Of a stretch of 64,000 bases of DNA, positions 7,801 to 60,610 are shown piece after piece. The notes under the pieces are model-generated. The model had not been told where the DNA came from. It saw only the letters and a program-made list of their open reading frames with translations, and ran no database searches. This DNA is from an uncultured Bacilli bacterium (GTDB lineage Bacteria > Bacillota_I > Bacilli_A > RF39 > UBA660). Position numbers and translations under genes: made by a program. Positions within the stretch are counted from its first letter, which is position 1, and every line of letters begins with the position of its first letter. The stretch is from the NCBI GenBank assembly GCA_934129945.1, contig CAKOXC010000002.1:53747-117746 (forward strand), written 5' to 3'.

Positions 7801-8748
7801 ATGACAATAGTTTTTAAAGTTAGTGAAAATGTACAAAAGAAAATGGAAGAGTTTTATAAAGATTTATATCGAGATAAATTCCCACCATACTCTATTTTTC
7901 AAGCTCAAAGTGCTGATGTAATTATTACTTTATATGAAAGTGGCAAAGTCATGTTTCAAGGAGTTTCAGCTGATATAGAGGCAAATATCTGGAAAGATCA
8001 AGAAAGACACTTAAATAATAGAGATATTGATAAAGAACTTAAAAAGATTGAAGATAAAAAAGAAGAAAAGAAAAAAGAAAATAATTTAAATTTTTATAAT
8101 ATGTCTACTATTGGTAGCGATGAAGTTGGAACTGGAGATTATTTTGGCCCTATTGTTGTAACTGCTACTTATGTAAGCAAGAAAGATGAAATATTTTTAA
8201 GAGATTTGGGTGTCAAAGATTCTAAAGCTCTTACAGATGAAAAAATAATTGAAATTGCTAAAGAATTAATAAAAAAAGTTAATTATAAGACATTTATTCT
8301 AACTAACAAAGATTTTAACGATTATACTAAAAAAGGATATAACATGAATAAGATAAAAGCAATTCTTCATAATAAAGTATTATATTCTATAAAAGAAAAT
8401 CATATGAACGATTATGATAAGATAGTTGTTGACCAATTTGTTTATCCTAAGAAATATTTTGAACATATAAACGAAGCCACTAACAAAGTGACCGATATTT
8501 CCTTCACGCCCCGTGCTGAAAGCAAATGTTTATCAGTTGCTTGCTCTTCTATAATTAGTAGATATATCTTTCTTCATGAAATGGATAAATTATCAAAAGA
8601 ACTTAATATTACTCTACCTAAGGGAGCAAATGATATAGTTGATGATATAGGATTTGAAATTGTTAAAAAATATGGTTTTGATAAGTTATATGAAGTTGCT
8701 AAAATAAATTTTAAAAATACAGAAAAAATTAAAGATAAGATGGAATAA
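7801..8748 (+). CDS. rnhC: ribonuclease HIII
   Basis: 315 aa, N-terminal DUF3378-like region then RNase HII/III catalytic motif DEVGTGDYFGPIVV. Confidence 0.8.
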   Translation: MTIVFKVSENVQKKMEEFYKDLYRDKFPPYSIFQAQSADVIITLYESGKVMFQGVSADIEANIWKDQERHLNNRDIDKELKKIEDKKEEKKKENNLNFYNMSTIGSDEVGTGDYFGPIVVTATYVSKKDEIFLRDLGVKDSKALTDEKIIEIAKELIKKVNYKTFILTNKDFNDYTKKGYNMNKIKAILHNKVLYSIKENHMNDYDKIVVDQFVYPKKYFEHINEATNKVTDISFTPRAESKCLSVACSSIISRYIFLHEMDKLSKELNITLPKGANDIVDDIGFEIVKKYGFDKLYEVAKINFKNTEKIKDKME

Positions 8749-8762
8749 TATTTTCCATCTTT

Positions 8763-9704
8763 TTAATTAAACATCTTTAATAAATAAGTTTTAAATAGTG
8801 TAATTTTATCAAAGTATATTGATTTCATTTGAATATCACATTCATTTAGATTTAAAATGTTATTTTCAAGTTCATCATAAGTATATTTAAAACTATTTTT
8901 TAGCATTTTTTCCACTTGCCAATTCTGCAATTTCAATTCACGAGAAATACTCATTAAATCTCTTTTATCATCATATAAAGTTTTTGTGCAATATAATAAA
9001 CGATATTCACGTGCAAGAAGAATTACCAAAGAAATTGGTTCTACTTTCAGAAGGGATAAATCATCAAGTAATTTAAAAGCTTTTTCTAAATCATTATTTA
9101 TAACCGCTTCTATAAATTTAAAATTATTATCATCAATATTATTAGAAATAATTTTTTTTACATCATTAAATGATATTTTACAAGGATTATCATAATATAA
9201 TTTTAACTTTTCTAGTTCATTATATATTAAATCATAATTATTTAAACAATTATTTATTATATAATTTATACTATCACTTTCAATCGAAAAGCCATCGCTT
9301 TTTAAATTATTTCTAATTTTGTTAGCCAAATCGTTAAAACTTAGTTTTGGAATTTCAATATACGAATATTTTTCTTTAATTAACTTAGTTACTTTTTTTC
9401 TTGTATCACATTTATCATTATAAGTAAAAATTAATATAGTATTTTCATTAGGACTCTCTAAATATTTTAATAATAGTTCTGTCTTTTTTTCTGCAATCTT
9501 ACCACTTCCAAAGATATTTGCATTTTTAACTACTATTACTCTTTTATCATTGAACATAGAAACATATTGAGCTTCAATTAAAATATCTTCTAACTCTACA
9601 TTATTCAAATCAAAAGTTTCAATGTTTGCCTCTTTTTTTAATATTTTTTTTAATTCTTCATCTATTAATTTAATACTATCACTTGTAATCAAATATATAT
9701 TCAT
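8763..9704 (-). CDS. holA: DNA polymerase III delta subunit
   Basis: 313 aa. Position downstream of comE operon mirrors Bacillus comEA-comEC-holA. Delta-subunit-like fold inferred from size and context only. Confidence 0.55.
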   Translation of the reverse strand: MNIYLITSDSIKLIDEELKKILKKEANIETFDLNNVELEDILIEAQYVSMFNDKRVIVVKNANIFGSGKIAEKKTELLLKYLESPNENTILIFTYNDKCDTRKKVTKLIKEKYSYIEIPKLSFNDLANKIRNNLKSDGFSIESDSINYIINNCLNNYDLIYNELEKLKLYYDNPCKISFNDVKKIISNNIDDNNFKFIEAVINNDLEKAFKLLDDLSLLKVEPISLVILLAREYRLLYCTKTLYDDKRDLMSISRELKLQNWQVEKMLKNSFKYTYDELENNILNLNECDIQMKSIYFDKITLFKTYLLKMFN

Positions 9705-10724: not shown

Positions 10725-11543
10725 TTATTTTAATTCATTATTATCTTTTTCTAATTCTTTTAAACTTTTTTCTGGTGTTTTTAATTCTTCTGGCATAGTT
10801 CCTCCCAATCTTTTAATACTATTTCTAACTTCTTTACCTACTTCAAAATGAACAGAATTTGCAGTATATTCATTATCCACATTGTCTCTTTTTAATTTAG
10901 CATCAGTTTGAGCAATTCTAAATATATTATCTGCAAGTTCTTCACTACCCATATTATCTAATATATCTTCTCTATATCTAAGTTTCTTTCTTTTAAAAAT
11001 AACATCGGCTGTTTCACCATTATAAAGTCCTTTATATCCCGCATTATGAAATCTTGCTAAATCTTTTACACCAATTTTCACTGCTGTTTTATTTAAATTA
11101 AAATTTCCTTTTCTTGCTTGATTTCTTCTATATAATCTTTTTTCATTTTCTGTCAATTCATTATAATTTTTTTCACTTAGTTCTTGTTTTCTTGTTTGAA
11201 TGGCAAAATAAGTTTGACCTAAAGCAATTATCTTCTTTTTAGGATTAGCATTTTGAACTATTAAATAGCATATATATCTAGTTAATTTATAATCCTTGAT
11301 AAATTCTTCTTTACCTTTGCCATTTTTTATTGGCTTCCTGACTTCAGGAAGCCAATATAAATTATCATTGCTACTATTTTTGTAAGATGCAACTGCTTTC
11401 TTAATTACGTTATTAAAATTTTCCCACTTGCTATATTCAAGCAATGGCATTAATTCTCTTGCTAACCAATATTCTTCACCATTTTTATCTATATGTTTAA
11501 CATTTTCAAATACTTTTTCTGTGTATTTCTTCAATCCATTCAT
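10725..11543 (-). CDS. DinD-like (DNA-damage-inducible protein D family) protein, copy 1
   Basis: Paralog of 58451..59305 (about 60% identical by eye). Likely start ATG 11543 with SD AAAGGAGG. Family assignment from memory of DinD/Bro-N-like proteins. Confidence 0.5.
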   Translation of the reverse strand: MNGLKKYTEKVFENVKHIDKNGEEYWLARELMPLLEYSKWENFNNVIKKAVASYKNSSNDNLYWLPEVRKPIKNGKGKEEFIKDYKLTRYICYLIVQNANPKKKIIALGQTYFAIQTRKQELSEKNYNELTENEKRLYRRNQARKGNFNLNKTAVKIGVKDLARFHNAGYKGLYNGETADVIFKRKKLRYREDILDNMGSEELADNIFRIAQTDAKLKRDNVDNEYTANSVHFEVGKEVRNSIKRLGGTMPEELKTPEKSLKELEKDNNELK

Positions 11544-11559
11544 TTTATCATCCTCCTTT

Positions 11560-13596
11560 CTATGGACTACAAGTCTCAATTTTTAATTTATTATTTTTAA
11601 TTTTAAACATAATACTACCATTTTTATCTGTTCTATATATTTTTGAATCCTGTAATGTATCTAAAACTTCTTTATTCGGATGGCCATACCCATTATTCTT
11701 TCCAACACTGATTATGGAATATTTAGGATTTATATAATCAATAAATTCTTTTCCACTGCTTGTCTTAGAACCATGGTGTCCAATTTTTAATACATCGATA
11801 TCAGATAAATCATAATTATTTATTATATCCTTTTCTCTTGCTATTCCAGCATCTCCCATAAATAAAAATTTATAATTATTTAACTTTGTATAAATAACAT
11901 TGCTATTATTATTTTCATTATCATATTCTTTTGTATTTAAAAAATATAATTTACTATTATTAATATCTAAATTCTGAATACAAGAAGAATATTTAATATT
12001 ATTTTTATCTAATAAATTCATCAAATTTATTTCTAAATCATTATAAGATCCACAATTAAATACCACTTGTTCTACTTTAAAGTCACTAACTAAATTGACT
12101 GCTTCTCCCATATGATCGTAGTCTCCATGAGTAATTATTAATTTTGTAATTTTAGTAATACCAAAACTTTTTAAAAATGTAATTAATTGCTCTGAATCTT
12201 TATATTCTTTTGTTTTTTCTTGCCAGGATTCTTTTTGATAGGTAGTTTTACCACCTGTATCAATCATTACTACGTCTTTGTGTTTTGGACTTATAATTAC
12301 TTCACAATCACCTTGACCTGCATCTAAATAATAAATATAATAGTTGCTATTAAATAAATAACTAAATTTAGTTATTACTACTAAGACTGGTAAAAATAGC
12401 AATAATTTTTTGTTCTTTGTTTTTATAAATAAAATCAGGAAAACATAATATATTAAAATTATAATTAAATTCATTTTACCAGTAGTTATTATAAAAGCTA
12501 ATTTTTCTAATAAAAAATTACTGTATTCTAGTATTACTATTAAGATATGTAAAATACTATCTAAAAATGGAAAAATAAAAGAAAGTAATAAAAATGGGTA
12601 AAGAATATATGAAACAAATGGTACTATTAAAATATTAATAAATATTGAGATTAAATTAAATTCAAAATTATTGTAAAGAGTTATTGGTAAAGACAATAAA
12701 AAAGCAAATATTGAAAGACTTATAATACATTTTGGTTTAATTAAAAATAAACCAAGTGTTATTATAAATGAATATTGGAATCCAACATCTAATATTAAAA
12801 ATGGATTTATTAAAATTAAAATAAAGGCTGTATAAAAAAGTAATTTTGAATTATTAAAATCTTTGAATAAATTTATATTTTTTAAAGTATAAAATATAGT
12901 AACTCTTAAAACAGAAGACGTAAACATTACTAAAAAACTATAAATATATAAAAATATTACGATGAATTTATTATTGAACTTTAATTTATTAAATATAAGA
13001 ATAAGCATGCTTATATGCATGCCTGAAATAGCAAATAAATGGGTTATTCCATTGGTTTTATATAAATTGTATACATTACTCTCTAAAAGGCTTTTATCAC
13101 CTAGGATAAAGGTATAAAAATATTTAGAATCCTTTCTATTATCAATCATTTTTATGATAAAATTCTTTAATTTATAAAAAATATTATTCTTTTTAATTAT
13201 TTTAACTGTCTTTGTATTCATGATAAGATTTATATTTTTAGATTTTAAATATTTTTTATAATTAAAGTTATTAGTAATAGTATTATTAACTGGTTCATTA
13301 ACTGAACCAGTAGTTTTTATAGTATATCCTAACTCAAGATTATTCTCTAAATACTTTTTTTCACTTTCTGTTTTTATATAGTAATTTGCTATTATTTTTT
13401 GTTTATTCTTTAACTGCATTGAAAGTTTATCACCATCTATTTTATAAGCTACTAAAACACCATTAAATTTATCTATATTTAAATTAGAATTTTTTATATT
13501 AAAATTTAGTATAATATAAACAGATAACATTATAAATAAAATAATTAATGTAATATTAGATTGTAATATTTGATTTAATTTTTTCAAACAATGCAT
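11560..13596 (-). CDS. comEC: DNA internalization competence protein ComEC/Rec2
   Basis: 678 aa. N-terminal polytopic membrane region plus C-terminal metallo-beta-lactamase motif (ITHGDYDHMGEA). Overlaps comEA. Confidence 0.85.
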   Translation of the reverse strand: MHCLKKLNQILQSNITLIILFIMLSVYIILNFNIKNSNLNIDKFNGVLVAYKIDGDKLSMQLKNKQKIIANYYIKTESEKKYLENNLELGYTIKTTGSVNEPVNNTITNNFNYKKYLKSKNINLIMNTKTVKIIKKNNIFYKLKNFIIKMIDNRKDSKYFYTFILGDKSLLESNVYNLYKTNGITHLFAISGMHISMLILIFNKLKFNNKFIVIFLYIYSFLVMFTSSVLRVTIFYTLKNINLFKDFNNSKLLFYTAFILILINPFLILDVGFQYSFIITLGLFLIKPKCIISLSIFAFLLSLPITLYNNFEFNLISIFINILIVPFVSYILYPFLLLSFIFPFLDSILHILIVILEYSNFLLEKLAFIITTGKMNLIIILIYYVFLILFIKTKNKKLLLFLPVLVVITKFSYLFNSNYYIYYLDAGQGDCEVIISPKHKDVVMIDTGGKTTYQKESWQEKTKEYKDSEQLITFLKSFGITKITKLIITHGDYDHMGEAVNLVSDFKVEQVVFNCGSYNDLEINLMNLLDKNNIKYSSCIQNLDINNSKLYFLNTKEYDNENNNSNVIYTKLNNYKFLFMGDAGIAREKDIINNYDLSDIDVLKIGHHGSKTSSGKEFIDYINPKYSIISVGKNNGYGHPNKEVLDTLQDSKIYRTDKNGSIMFKIKNNKLKIETCSP

Positions 13597-22506: not shown

Positions 22507-22795
22507 TTTATCACTACTCTCTATTTAATTCTCTTTTTCTATTCTAAAATAAAAACCAGTAAAAAATCAAGTTTTTCACTAGCTTTTTATTCTTTTTATT
22601 CTCATACCCTAGTAAAAGTATATCAAATTTTTAACTTTTTTTCAAATTTAATTAATGCCATAATTAATTTTCCCTGAAAATTTTAAAATTAAAATTTTTA
22701 GGATTTTCTTCCACTTTTTCCATCCCTTGCTTTAAAAAAAAGAGCGAGGAGTGTTCTTAAAAGCAAAAGGGTTAAATTTGAATCAAAGATTCAAA

Positions 22796-24694
22796 TTACT
22801 TTGTAAGAACTAGGCGAAGTCCAATGCCACCATCGGCACCACCAGTGTGATGAATGAAGGAGAACTGACCCGCAAGTACACCATTGCCGTAACGGCCGCC
22901 TCGATGGAACCAAGAGTACGAAGAATTGGCAAAGTAAGAATTGTCAGCATACCAACCATTGTGTGGGCGATTATTACTATCTGCATCTTGATAATAATAA
23001 AATGGTCCCATCTCTCCTGTTGCATCTCCTAAGATTCTCTTACTATATGTTGTCCAATCACTATTTGCATCATATTCATCATAATATTTAGAATTGTATG
23101 ATTTTAATGATGAACTATCAAATCCTGAATCCTTATACGTTTCACTTCTAAGTGATGCCATATACTCCAAAGCTCCACCGCTCATATCATATATTCCTGT
23201 TATATTTCCTGTTGTACTTGCTTTATATCCTGTACTTGTATTATATGGTAAAGTTACACTTGCATCTGTTCCATAGGTTCCGGGGACTTTGGTTTGATCA
23301 GCACTATCTGTTGCTGCATATCCTGTTATGTAATTTGAATTATTATTTATTCTAACTTCAGTATTTATTCCATATTTTGAATGAGATAGATATGCTACTG
23401 CTCCCCATTCTGTATTTTTCATCATATGTGAGTCATTATCTCTTTTATAATTATATGCTGTTTCAAACATTGTTTTTACATTTATATTTCTTAATGATGT
23501 TTGATTTGGTTTTACTGTTATATTTGCTGTACTTCCGGTTGTTTCAAATTTTGCTACCCATAATCCATTTGTATTCATTGAAATAAATGCAGGTGAAGTC
23601 ATATAATCTCCAACCTTACAATTACCACTTGCTCCACTTGTCATTGGTGTTGTACATTCTCCATTATTTGAATCATTTGTATTTGTTGTGCCAAATTTTA
23701 TTTGAATTTCTTTTGCATTACTTGTCGTTGGCTTACTAGATGTATACCCATCAGTTTCACCTAAATTAAATATTTGATATGAATATTTTGGTATCCATAC
23801 AAAGTATGATTCAATATTATCTTCTGGTATTGTATCCCCATTATTATATATTTTAGAACTATCTGCTAAAATAACTGCATTGGCCCATTTCTTATCTTCA
23901 TATTTATACCACTCTATATTAGTATCTGCCTTTGTTACTGTTCCATCATCAGCTATTGCTACTGGTATTAAATTATCACTTAATACTGGATCTGTTCCAT
24001 TAAGTAATGCTTCTTTGTATTCAGCTTTAACGCTAGAATCAGTACTACTTGTTACTATTACTTTACCAGTAAATGATTTACCCATAGTTGATAAATCTTC
24101 AACACTTTCATCCATCCAAACATATAGTTTATATGTCTTTGACTGTCCTTTTGATACTACAGAACTATTATCACTATTCATAGTAGCTTTTGTTAGACTT
24201 CCACTAGTTAATATATATGAATTTAATATATTGTAAGTATTATTATTTTCATCAGTATAAGTATAATTATTATATTCATCATATTTTTTTGTACTTCCTA
24301 TTATCTTAGGACCTACTGTGTTGCCTTTTTCGTCAACCAGTTTGTAATCAAGATAATTATCTAAATCACTACTTCCAGTAGTGTTTAATGTTACATTATA
24401 ATACATATCAATTGAACAATTATTAGTTATTGTAAAAGTATATGGGGTATTTTTCATTGCATCAGTTTCGCTCATCGGATAAGTATTTGTTAAATTAATT
24501 GGATTTTCATCAGTTAATTCAAAAGAAAAACATCCACTTTTTATTTTATTAGTTGATTTTTGAGCATAATTTTTTTGCCAATATGCATAAGATACACCTG
24601 TAAATATTACCATAATAAATATAAATGCTAAAACTCCGATTAATGTTATTGGTAATATATTATCTTTATTAAATTTTAAATTTATTTTTTTCAT
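22796..24694 (-). CDS. Ser/Thr/Asn-rich membrane-anchored surface protein with C-terminal FGE-sulfatase (SUMF1/DUF323)-like domain
   Basis: N-terminal TM (ILPITLIGVLAFIFIMVIF). C-terminal motifs GIYDMSGGALEYMAS, HRGGRYGNGVLAGQF, GIGLRLVL resemble the FGE fold (DMxGNVWEW, RGGSW, GFRC). Start is one of three consecutive ATGs at 24694-24700 after SD AGAAGG. The 3' ~250 nt are strikingly GC-rich. Confidence 0.5.
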   Translation of the reverse strand: MKKINLKFNKDNILPITLIGVLAFIFIMVIFTGVSYAYWQKNYAQKSTNKIKSGCFSFELTDENPINLTNTYPMSETDAMKNTPYTFTITNNCSIDMYYNVTLNTTGSSDLDNYLDYKLVDEKGNTVGPKIIGSTKKYDEYNNYTYTDENNNTYNILNSYILTSGSLTKATMNSDNSSVVSKGQSKTYKLYVWMDESVEDLSTMGKSFTGKVIVTSSTDSSVKAEYKEALLNGTDPVLSDNLIPVAIADDGTVTKADTNIEWYKYEDKKWANAVILADSSKIYNNGDTIPEDNIESYFVWIPKYSYQIFNLGETDGYTSSKPTTSNAKEIQIKFGTTNTNDSNNGECTTPMTSGASGNCKVGDYMTSPAFISMNTNGLWVAKFETTGSTANITVKPNQTSLRNINVKTMFETAYNYKRDNDSHMMKNTEWGAVAYLSHSKYGINTEVRINNNSNYITGYAATDSADQTKVPGTYGTDASVTLPYNTSTGYKASTTGNITGIYDMSGGALEYMASLRSETYKDSGFDSSSLKSYNSKYYDEYDANSDWTTYSKRILGDATGEMGPFYYYQDADSNNRPHNGWYADNSYFANSSYSWFHRGGRYGNGVLAGQFSFIHHTGGADGGIGLRLVLTK

Positions 24695-24799
24695 CATCAT
24701 ACCTTCTACTCTATAAATTATTATACTAAATAAGGAATAGTAATTCAACTGAAAAACTATTTTAAATTACTAGAAATTGTTATATTTTCACCATTAAAT

Positions 24800-24846: not shown

Positions 24847-24878
24847 GTTAAGATAAAGTTTTCAGGCATTTTCAACCG

Positions 24879-24972
24879 AGATTACTTATAACTCGCACCA
24901 CTCGGAAGCGACTAACATTTCGCGATTGGAATCACTTATAACCCGCACCATCCATAAGCGGCTAACATGTTC
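24879..24972 (+). repeat. two tandem ~44-nt relatively GC-rich direct repeats (about 85% identical) separated by 7 nt
   Basis: R1 GATTACTTATAACTCGCACCACTCGGAAGCGACTAACATTTCG; R2 AATCACTTATAACCCGCACCATCCATAAGCGGCTAACATGTTCG. The internal 4-bp stem TCGC/GCGA versus CCGC/GCGG shows a compensatory change. Confidence 0.5.
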
Positions 24973-24978
24973 GAATAA

Positions 24979-42064: not shown

Positions 42065-42155
42065 TTCCTCGACTATTAGATTATATCAAAAATTTTCTTA
42101 ATTGTAAAAAGAATAATTTTATGTTACAATAATGGCGATTTGGAGGTTGACAAAT

Positions 42156-42707
42156 ATGGAATTACCAAAAATTAAAATTTTAGACGAAAAGAATAAAATA
42201 TTGCATCAAAAAAGTGTAGAAGTAAAATTTCCTTTAAGTGCAAAAGAAAAGCAAGATATTAAAGATATGCTTTTATATTTAAAAATGAGTCAAATTGACG
42301 AAGAAAGAGAAAAATATGATTTAAGAGCTGGTATGGGACTTGCCTATGTTCAAATTGGTGTTTTAAAAAGAATATTTGTTATCGTTGATGAATATGAAGA
42401 AGGTAAATTTAAAAATTATGTTGTAATTAACCCAGAAATTAAAAGTATGAGTGAAGAATTAGTTTATGTTGGGGAAGGTGAAGGATGCTTAAGCATTAAT
42501 CGTGATGTTGAAGGCATTGTTCCAAGACATGCTAGAATCACAGTAGATGCTTATGACGAGGATGGAAATCCCTATACTATTCGTGTTAGAGAAGAAATTG
42601 CTATAGCATTCCAACATGAAATGGATCATCTAGATGGCATTTTATTTCCTGATAGAATTGATAAAAAGAATCCTTTTAAAGATGCAGAATTAATGCGTGA
42701 AATATAA
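42156..42707 (+). CDS. def: peptide deformylase
   Basis: Motifs GMGLAYVQIG, EGCLS, HEMDHLDG. Start ATG 42156 after SD GGAGG (track start 42132). Confidence 0.85.
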   Translation: MELPKIKILDEKNKILHQKSVEVKFPLSAKEKQDIKDMLLYLKMSQIDEEREKYDLRAGMGLAYVQIGVLKRIFVIVDEYEEGKFKNYVVINPEIKSMSEELVYVGEGEGCLSINRDVEGIVPRHARITVDAYDEDGNPYTIRVREEIAIAFQHEMDHLDGILFPDRIDKKNPFKDAELMREI

Positions 42708-42735
42708 AAAATATGAGAAAATAATCTCATATTTT

Positions 42736-43248
42736 TTATTTTGCTAAAACTAATCGAAGACCAATGCTGCTGCCAGCACCACCAGTGATATAAATGAAGC
42801 CGAACTGACCTGCAAGCACACCATTGTCGGAAGTGCCGCCTCGACCGAACCAAGGGTAAGAAGAATCGGCAAAGTTAGAATTGTCATCGTACCAATTATT
42901 ATGTATTCTTGTTTTACTATCGGTATCCTGATAGTAATACAAAGGTCCCATTTCTCCTGTTGCATCTCCTAAAATTCTCTTACTATAAGTAGTTTCAGCA
43001 CTTGAACTATTATATTCGTCATAGTATTTTGAATTGTATGCTTTTAATGATGAATTATCAAATTCAGAACTTCCATATGTTTTACTTCGAAGAGATGCCA
43101 TATATTCCCAAGTTCCACCACTCATATCATAAATTCCTGTGATATTTCCTGTTGTACTTGCTTTATATCCTGTGGTTGTATTATATGGTAAAGTTACACT
43201 TGCATCAGATCCAGCTTCTCCAGGGTATTTACTTATTTTTAGAATCAA
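42736..43248 (-). pseudogene. truncated paralog (C-terminal 160 aa) of the FGE-domain surface protein, fused into the 3' end of dtd
   Basis: About 80% nt identity to 22796-23290. Homology begins at PG..G.DASVTLPYN. The ORF's first 8 codons overlap the dtd 3' end in another frame. GC-rich like the parental 3' end. Confidence 0.55.
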
Positions 43249-43672
43249 TAATTATGGTTGTCGGGCCATCATTTACTATTTCTACTTGCATATTTGCACC
43301 AAATATACCATTTTTTACTTCAACATGTTCTTTTAATAATCTAGTAAATTCTTCATAAAGAGGCATTGCCTCCTCACTTTTTAATGCTTTTATATAAGAA
43401 GGCCTGTTTCCTTTTTTGGCATCTGCATAAAGTGTAAATTGACTAATTAAAAGAATACTTCCAAAGACATCTAAAATACTTTTATTCATCACATGGTTTT
43501 CATCATCAAAAACTCTTAAATTTATAACTTTATTAACCATGTATTTAATATCTTCAATATTATCACCATAAGTAAATCCAACTAAAATACATAATCCTTT
43601 ATCTATTTTATTAACCAGTTTATTATCAACTGTTACACTGCTTCTTTTAACTTTTTGAATCACAACTTTCAT
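43229..43672 (-). CDS. dtd: D-aminoacyl-tRNA deacylase
   Basis: 147 aa, SQFTLYAD and NDGPTT motifs. Confidence 0.85.
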   Translation of the reverse strand: MKVVIQKVKRSSVTVDNKLVNKIDKGLCILVGFTYGDNIEDIKYMVNKVINLRVFDDENHVMNKSILDVFGSILLISQFTLYADAKKGNRPSYIKALKSEEAMPLYEEFTRLLKEHVEVKNGIFGANMQVEIVNDGPTTIIIDSKNK

Positions 43673-58450: not shown

Positions 58451-59305
58451 CTATTTTATTCCTTCAAGTTTCTTTTGCGCTTTTATTTCTAATTTTTTCT
58501 TTTCTTTTTCAAGCTCTTTTAAACTTTTTTCTGGTGTTGGCATTTCTTCAGGCATTATTCCACCAATATCTGCGATTGCTTTTCTAACTTTTTTCCCAAC
58601 CTCATAATGTACATCTTTTGCTTCTTTTTCTCCTTGTACATTATCTTTTAAAAGTTTTTGTTTTGTTTGATTTATTCTAAATAAATTAGCAACTAATTCA
58701 TCTTCATTCATATTATCCAAAATATCTTCTCTATAACGTAATTTTTTTCTTTTAAAAATATCGTCAGCAGTTTCTCCATTATATAATCCTTTATATCCTG
58801 CATTATGAAATTCAGCCATATTTTTAACGCCAGCAGATGAAGCGACCTTTTGTAATGTATAATTACCTTGTCTTGTTAACTTTCTTTGATAAAATCTTTT
58901 TTCATCATCTGATAATGAATCATATTCTTGCTCTGTTATTTCTTGTTTTCTTGTTTGTATAGCAAAATATGTTTGTCCTAAAGCAACAACTTCTTTATTT
59001 GGATCAGCATTTTGTACTATTAAATAACATATATATCTTGAAAGTTTATAATCTTTAATAATTTCTTCTTTGCCTTTACCAGTTTTTATTGGCTTGTTGA
59101 CCTCAACAACCCAATCTTCTTCGCTTGAAACGCTGTTATTTGCTGCTAAAACTGCTTTATCTATTACTTTTTGAAAATTTCTCCAGTCTTTATATTCCAA
59201 TACTTTTTGTAATTCACGCGCATACCAATATTCATTTTCATATTCATCTATATGTTTAATATTCTCAAAAATATTGTTAGTATATCTATCTCCAAGTTTC
59301 TTCAT
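58451..59305 (-). CDS. DinD-like protein, copy 2
   Basis: 284 aa paralog of 10725..11543. Confidence 0.5.
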   Translation of the reverse strand: MKKLGDRYTNNIFENIKHIDEYENEYWYARELQKVLEYKDWRNFQKVIDKAVLAANNSVSSEEDWVVEVNKPIKTGKGKEEIIKDYKLSRYICYLIVQNADPNKEVVALGQTYFAIQTRKQEITEQEYDSLSDDEKRFYQRKLTRQGNYTLQKVASSAGVKNMAEFHNAGYKGLYNGETADDIFKRKKLRYREDILDNMNEDELVANLFRINQTKQKLLKDNVQGEKEAKDVHYEVGKKVRKAIADIGGIMPEEMPTPEKSLKELEKEKKKLEIKAQKKLEGIK

Positions 59306-60429: not shown

Positions 60430-60610
60430 TATTTAAATATGATTCATTATTTTCAATTTCCAACCTGTTATATTTACTAATTTCATGTAATACCTTTTCT
60501 ACATTATATAATCATTTATATCTTGCATTATGAAATTCAGCCATATTTTTAATATCAACAACTAAACCAACTTTTTGAAGTGTATAATTACCCTGCTTGT
60601 TCTAATTTAC
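60430..60610 (-). pseudogene. remnant of a third DinD-like gene (internally deleted)
   Basis: 60511-60605 is about 80% identical to 58790-58880 of copy 2 (AEFHNAGYKG region). 60440-60510 weakly matches the N-terminal region. Confidence 0.45.

Follow-up and report, generated by a model that had tools for sequence, protein, structure and literature searches.

The 170-codon open reading frame (ORF) that follows dtd in the window, the 64-kb stretch of DNA analysed here, is very likely an ordinary pseudogene: an inactive leftover of a second DGR-target gene after a 1.6-kb deletion. This ORF (42736..43248, minus strand) opens with a TTG codon at 43248. Its first six codons are dtd sequence, read in a different frame within the final 20 nt of that gene, and its last ~165 codons and stop codon are derived from a 535-aa DGR-target paralog. 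The original prediction described ~80% nucleotide identity to the 3' end of a surface-protein gene 20 kb away, an abrupt start of the homology, and an ORF start overlapping the last 20 nt of dtd, all of which we confirmed. A BLASTP comparison of the fragment with the 650-codon ORF at 22796-24748 gave 125 identical residues out of 165 (76%) with no gaps (E 2e-82). At the DNA level, the last 165 codons are about 80% identical to the 3' end of the large gene (22796-24694, minus strand), and the two share an ungapped repeat of 300 nt with 78% identity. The similarity begins at ~43226, immediately past the dtd stop codon (43229-43231), and the DNA alignment stays in register up to the common TAA stop. 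The window contains two copies of the homologous sequence, one of which is the intact large gene.

The origin of the fragment was argued from a conspecific strain (L036), in which both flanks match the window at 98.5-99.1% identity. In this strain, topA ... relA and dtd are followed, after 490 nt, by a full-length gene for 535 aa and this in turn by def (minus strand) and nfo. The left flank of the window aligns to this allele up to 43227 and the right flank from 43214, placing the deletion junction at 43214..43227 (minus strand). The segment missing from the window is L036 9514-11129, amounting to 1,616 nt, and it includes the terminator of dtd, a hairpin (ATTAGCAAGAAATTGCTAAT) with a T run behind it, as well as the poly-G promoter of the paralog and about 370 codons. 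In comparison with the intact allele at its own locus, the fragment is thus truncated and has lost both promoter and start codon. If the parent allele resembled that of another strain (L019) at this point, an ~8-nt A/T microhomology (AAATAAAT) at the junction could be inferred, which is compatible with the alignment. The proposed deletion junction at the boundary between dtd and the fragment was therefore borne out, but the idea that the fragment is a duplicate of the gene 20 kb away was not, as the parent is a separate 535-aa paralog that is intact between dtd and def in L036. The prediction had also considered that related genomes might carry a full-length second paralog here, with the window copy merely cut short by an assembly error; the full-length paralog is indeed present in related genomes, but the truncation is real.

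All 11 contigs that were retrieved have the identical junction, and 28 contigs are indexed as carrying the fragment protein or a variant of it. Six contigs obtained by a lookup with dtd come from other human-gut samples and match the window at 98.3-100% identity across 20 kb. Each of them carried the same 170-codon ORF, with the junction and the fragment 100% identical to the window. Three further contigs had the same junction and a fragment with 6-8 substitutions. An assembly artefact was ruled out, as contigs that come from separate samples and were built by different assemblers share this junction. A 5'-truncated retro-copy, made by the DGR RT from a target mRNA, was also ruled out, because the fragment occupies exactly the position, with the same 3' flank, that the intact gene has in L036, L024 and L019. 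The 90% cluster of the fragment protein additionally includes two 170-aa variants and one 535-aa protein. A scan of GTDB genomes with the fragment did not recover the species; the closest genome, 'Bacilli bacterium MAG100', has four paralogs of ~70% identity, and def adjoins none of them.

Two other contigs, L019 and L024, also carry the full-length 535-aa gene adjoining def, and the argument for the origin of the fragment does not rely on them. The left flank in L019 consists of an IS30-like gene and Dus in place of dtd, and the L024 contig ends 239 nt upstream of the gene; these left flanks may reflect an IS-mediated rearrangement or a misassembly. The 3' ~330 nt of the L019 gene, including the VR, are about 99% identical to the fragment, and its 5' part is ~10% different. 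Most simply, the L019 gene is an undeleted allele of the parent type, or the contig is a strain chimera. In L019, the IS30-like (HTH_38) gene (8475-9677) immediately precedes the paralog; in L035, where the paralog has another chromosomal location, a ~570-nt remnant of that gene (8238-8810) precedes it. The IS30-like element and the paralog may have moved together.

The promoters of the 535-aa paralogs have perfect -35 (TTGACA) and -10 (TATAAT) elements, with a spacer consisting of AGTACCGTT and a G run. Depending on the strain, the G run is 10, 10, 11, 12 or 14 nt long (L036 9946-9959; L019 9949-9959; L024 189-198; L023 9950-9959; L035 9094-9105). These differences look like slipped-strand phase variation of a DGR target. 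The deletion removed this promoter stretch from the window, which has no run of at least 8 G or C residues.

dtd (43229..43672, minus strand), encoding D-aminoacyl-tRNA deacylase, is intact (PF02580, E 9e-57), although its own terminator hairpin, present in L036, was lost to the deletion. def (42132..42707, plus strand), encoding peptide deformylase, is convergent with the fragment and forms the right flank common to the full-length alleles. An A/T-rich hairpin of 15 bp with a 6-nt loop (42704..42739, minus strand; -15.7 kcal/mol, z -7.1) starts in the stop codon of the fragment and is bordered by A and T runs, and the full-length alleles have a hairpin in the identical place. It probably terminates transcription from both sides, that of def and the read-through from relA-dtd. 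Read-through transcription of the fragment is to be expected, since the dtd terminator has been deleted. The loop of this hairpin reads TTATTT in the window and in L019, and AAATGA in L024 (~1845-1880); the latter is nearly the reverse complement of the former, as if the loop had been flipped between the inverted stems.

Both copies in the window end in a GC-rich tip: the last ~128-130 nt have a GC content of 0.49-0.53, against a window mean of 0.246. As a reference we used the TR of L029, which belongs not to this genome but to a relative, with 84% identity across the aligned 3' end of the gene and the spacer beyond it. L029, a 1-kb stretch from this diverged relative, was the sole match in a metagenome pattern scan for the inferred template. 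In it, the large-gene ortholog has the same hairpin past its stop codon and continues into ~160 nt of homologous spacer, after which comes the TR. The fossil VR of the fragment (42761..42888, minus strand; GC 0.51) differs from this TR at 16 of the 37 template adenines and at 6 of the 91 other positions (p 3e-6 for the adenine bias). For the VR of the intact paralog (22821..22948, minus strand; GC 0.52), the corresponding numbers are 17/37 and 5/91 (p 2.6e-7). The own VR of L029 has 18 mismatches to its own TR, of which 18 fall on the 37 template adenines and none on the 91 other positions. The adenine-biased mismatches thus indicate that both window copies bear VRs written by a DGR. Hairpins start at the stop codon of both copies, and the 3' ends of the paralogs differ at several bases; an IMH would have to be defined against the cognate TR. 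The original prediction held that the divergence is spread through the fragment. This applies outside the VR region, where third-position changes are common, but in codons 118-161 the changes fall almost only on positions 1-2 of NNY codons. Among 23 orthologs of the large gene, 76-91% identical overall, the variation is densest in the last ~50 residues.

Complete cassettes were found in related species. L015, another Bacilli MAG, has a target VR, a TR, a small ORF, bAvd (PF22296, 3e-23) and an RT (PF00078, 1.5e-15), and its VR/TR mismatches lie almost exclusively at template adenines. L025 has the same layout, with a MutS_I-like (PF01624) gene. In a further organism, L026 (8300-9300), two near-identical TRs about 480 nt apart stand ahead of a MutS-like/bAvd/RT cassette, with no adjacent target gene. 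The window itself does not contain a complete DGR (RT and TR), but only the two VR-bearing target sequences. Within its 64 kb, we found no TR at 55% or higher ungapped identity and no RT-type YxDD ORF, and tblastn of the L015 and L025 RT, bAvd and MutS-like proteins against the window gave no match below E 0.3. Of the homologs of the L015 RT, P0268 (L025) and P0339 (L026) were traced and proved to come from other organisms, and a TR-pattern scan of viral contigs gave no matches. A DGR might lie elsewhere in the genome, outside these 64 kb; if so, it would be expected to have a TR resembling GCTGACAATTCTAACTTTGTCAATTCTTCTAACCCTTGGTTCAATCGAGGCGGCAATTACAACAATGG.

The FGE-like label given to the C-terminal domain in the prediction stands on weak matches. 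The fragment matches PF03781 at E 6.5e-4, and the window proteins are below the Pfam cut-off; 18 of 25 family members match, with a best E of 5.7e-6. An AlphaFold model of the C-terminal domain had a pLDDT of 38, and sequence-profile matches to the PDB were insignificant. The assignment to the FGE-sulfatase or C-type-lectin-type fold thus rests on weak sequence matches.

The surface-protein gene of the prediction is an intact 632-aa paralog (from MKKINL; 22796..24694, minus strand) between ruvAB and gyrBA; it has a membrane anchor at the N-terminus, and its FGE-sulfatase-like domain at the C-terminus closes with the VR. The family has more than 5,000 relatives in the databases. A hairpin of 9 bp with a 3-nt loop (22776..22796, minus strand) begins at the stop codon; it is kept in L029, and L015 has a similar one in the same place. 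The homology to L029 ends at 22644 (22640..22648, minus strand), from where L029 reaches its TR after ~55 nt and the window runs on into gyrB. Strains L031-L034 have the same arrangement downstream of the gene, going straight into gyrB-gyrA.

Several other features were noted around this gene. In L031-L034 (the P0014 lineage), an AbiEii-family gene and a 196-aa partner, both absent from the window, lie between ruvB and the large-gene ortholog. In L030 (from 7900 onward; same scaffold as L004), PolyA_pol, DnaD and nth follow the large-gene ortholog, not gyrB-gyrA. The homology of L030 to the window stops exactly at the stop codon, the gene body being 91% and the upstream flank 99.4% identical; this is either a rearrangement or a mis-scaffold at a paralog. 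Between ruvB and the large gene, the window has two GC-richer direct repeats of about 39-48 nt at 24870-24975 (minus strand; GTTAGCCGCTTATGGATGGTGCGGGTTATAAGTGATTCC, GTTAGTCGCTTCCGAGTGGTGCGAGTTATAAGTAATCTC) with no Rfam match. Elsewhere in the window, at 10725-11579 and 58451-59305 (-), there are two paralogous 284-codon genes with 72-78% DNA identity, and a third, partial match lies at 60496-60595.

We next consider how the fragment has varied since the deletion. Over 493 nt, 6-8 differences (1.2-1.6%) separate the three allele types of the fragment, which is similar to the divergence of the flanks (0.5-2.3%). Between the window and L020, the ratio of nonsynonymous to synonymous changes was 7:1 in the fragment and 21:59 in five flanking genes (Fisher p 0.001, with eight substitutions in the fragment), indicating that constraint on the fragment is relaxed. 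Together with the truncation relative to L036, this agrees with the suggestion in the prediction of a decaying paralog. The ORF is still open across 170 codons in a genome of 25% GC, which speaks against a pseudogene, but the open frame says little because only ~7 substitutions have occurred since the alleles split.

The VRs have scarcely changed. That of the fragment is identical in seven sequences, and the three allele types, covering 28 indexed contigs, differ at only five VR sites, with codons 150-161 invariant. Three of these five differences are at template-adenine positions within 10 nt, numbers too small for interpretation. A single large-gene VR is common to 10 distinct proteins that differ in the rest of the body, and the full-length dtd-def paralog has one VR in seven distinct proteins. 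With the VRs static in the large gene, the full-length paralog and the fragment alike, no DGR activity is visible in this lineage. The VRs behave as fixed haplotypes, which fits a loss or silence of the DGR in the lineage.

This stasis bears on the possibility that the fragment is an orphan VR still serving as a live retrohoming target, rewritten without consequence by a DGR acting in trans. Known DGRs are able to act on remote targets, as in T. denticola (PMC4891356, PMC5758913), and the cis elements of the fragment, namely its VR, 3' end and hairpin, are as in the full-length alleles of L019, L024 and L036. Since all the cis elements of the intact alleles are retained, a strain whose DGR is active could still use the remnant for retrohoming. 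However, a VR that is identical in seven sequences and varies at five sites in all, the equally unchanging VRs of the two intact genes, and a window with neither TR nor RT make such rewriting improbable. There is a similarly small chance that the remnant acts as a neutral recorder of DGR activity in DGR-bearing strains, or as an occasional VR donor to intact paralogs, in which case the mosaic L019 gene would be a repaired allele and not the parent.

The prediction also raised the possibility that the fragment is a silent donor cassette, a promoterless 3' copy kept as a gene-conversion reservoir for expressed paralogs and generating antigenic variation in the manner of pilS/pilE or vls. The family is indeed mosaic: one allele of the large gene (P0374) bears a tract typical of the dtd-def paralog, and in L019 a 3' stretch that includes the VR and is nearly identical to the fragment is joined to a diverged 5' part. 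Nevertheless, the P0374 tract matches the full-length allele P0088 exactly and not the fragment; exchange between paralogs thus occurs occasionally in the family, with nothing to point to the truncated copy as donor. Of 385 collected proteins, the fragment alleles and L019, at the same locus, were the only ones with the VR motif of the fragment (GFIYITGGAGSS), and none of the 36 large-gene alleles examined had the fragment VR. In addition, the fragment is a single copy produced by the simple deletion of a resident gene, with no array of promoterless cassettes, the constraint on it is relaxed, and the VR variation of the family obeys the adenine rule of DGRs. A role as donor for gene conversion or antigenic variation is therefore unsupported, and we regard it as very unlikely: transfer of the fragment VR was not seen, and the variation is adenine-specific, as in DGRs. 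The VR of the fragment is an unchanging fossil, which points to an ordinary gene remnant and not to a recombination cassette.

Finally, a small stand-alone protein, translated and functional as 170 aa or as 129 aa from an internal ATG at MSGG, is extremely unlikely. The frame is open in every fetched contig, read-through transcription is expected with the dtd terminator gone, and 129-aa ORFs from the same Met are called in other genomes, but those calls look like broken or contig-cut genes (P0381 is in a 90% cluster with full-length proteins), the fragment has neither signal peptide nor anchor and starts some 45 residues into the FGE-like domain of ~210 residues, no Shine-Dalgarno motif (GGAGG-like) precedes the TTG, and the ratio of nonsynonymous to synonymous changes is 7:1.

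Taken together, the pseudogene reading suggests the following history. Strains of this uncultured low-GC gut Bacillota species carry several surface-protein paralogs with a C-terminal FGE-sulfatase-like (C-type-lectin-type) domain ending in a DGR VR, and in the original state the 535-aa paralog very likely stood between dtd and def. One deletion of 1.6 kb, for which a short A/T microhomology is the probable site, then took the dtd terminator, the poly-G promoter, the start codon, the membrane anchor and about 370 codons, joining the final 165 codons to the dtd stop codon. The remnant would since have been transcribed solely as the 3' tail of the relA-dtd message, up to the hairpin at 42704-42739, presumably with no useful translation product. 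Its diversification appears to have ended, with the DGR lost or silenced in the lineage.

The result is mainly a correction of annotation, in that a 'surface protein' and its partial duplicate become members of a large DGR-diversified family in uncultured gut Bacillota, and the GC-rich gene tips become VRs. The locus is a clean natural example of how a truncated DGR target originates, with intact and deleted alleles coexisting in one species, in a lineage where VRs are fixed haplotypes and the retroelement is not nearby. It offers no new mechanism, but may be of modest use for surveys of gut metagenomes that follow how DGRs are gained and lost or how their targets turn over.

Antigenic variation from promoterless cassettes operates in Neisseria pilS/pilE, Borrelia vls and Anaplasma msp2. 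The window resembles these systems in that a promoterless partial copy of a surface-protein gene and an expressed paralog occur in one genome; it differs in having one copy and no array, in the origin of that copy from the deletion of a resident gene, and in the lack of any sign of selection or detected transfer. Among DGRs, cassettes with a MutS-like accessory gene (MSL) have been described as 'Architecture D' (Wu et al., Nucleic Acids Res 2018; PMC5758913). The cassettes of L015 and L025 are of this kind, with a VR-bearing target, a TR, a small PF01624 MutS_I-like or equivalent ORF, bAvd and an RT, and with adenine-specific VR/TR differences, whereas the window holds none of the TR, MutS-like, bAvd and RT components. 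A close parallel for the fragment is the tvpA family of Treponema denticola, which comprises multi-copy, chromosomally scattered DGR targets of the FGE-sulfatase type, some of them 'suspicious' copies truncated to 58-136 aa (Front Microbiol 2016; PMC4891356), and some isolates of this species have 2-6 targets with no TR and no RT (PMC4891356). A truncated DGR target likewise accompanies an intact one here, the absence of TR and RT applying to the window only. Unlike T. denticola, the host is a low-GC gut Bacillota, and the N-terminal architecture is another one, having a membrane anchor to which some paralogs add a PF12389 region that is camelysin/TasA-like. Also unlike that case, the truncating event could be resolved here, through the intact allele of a conspecific strain, to a deletion of 1,616 nt.
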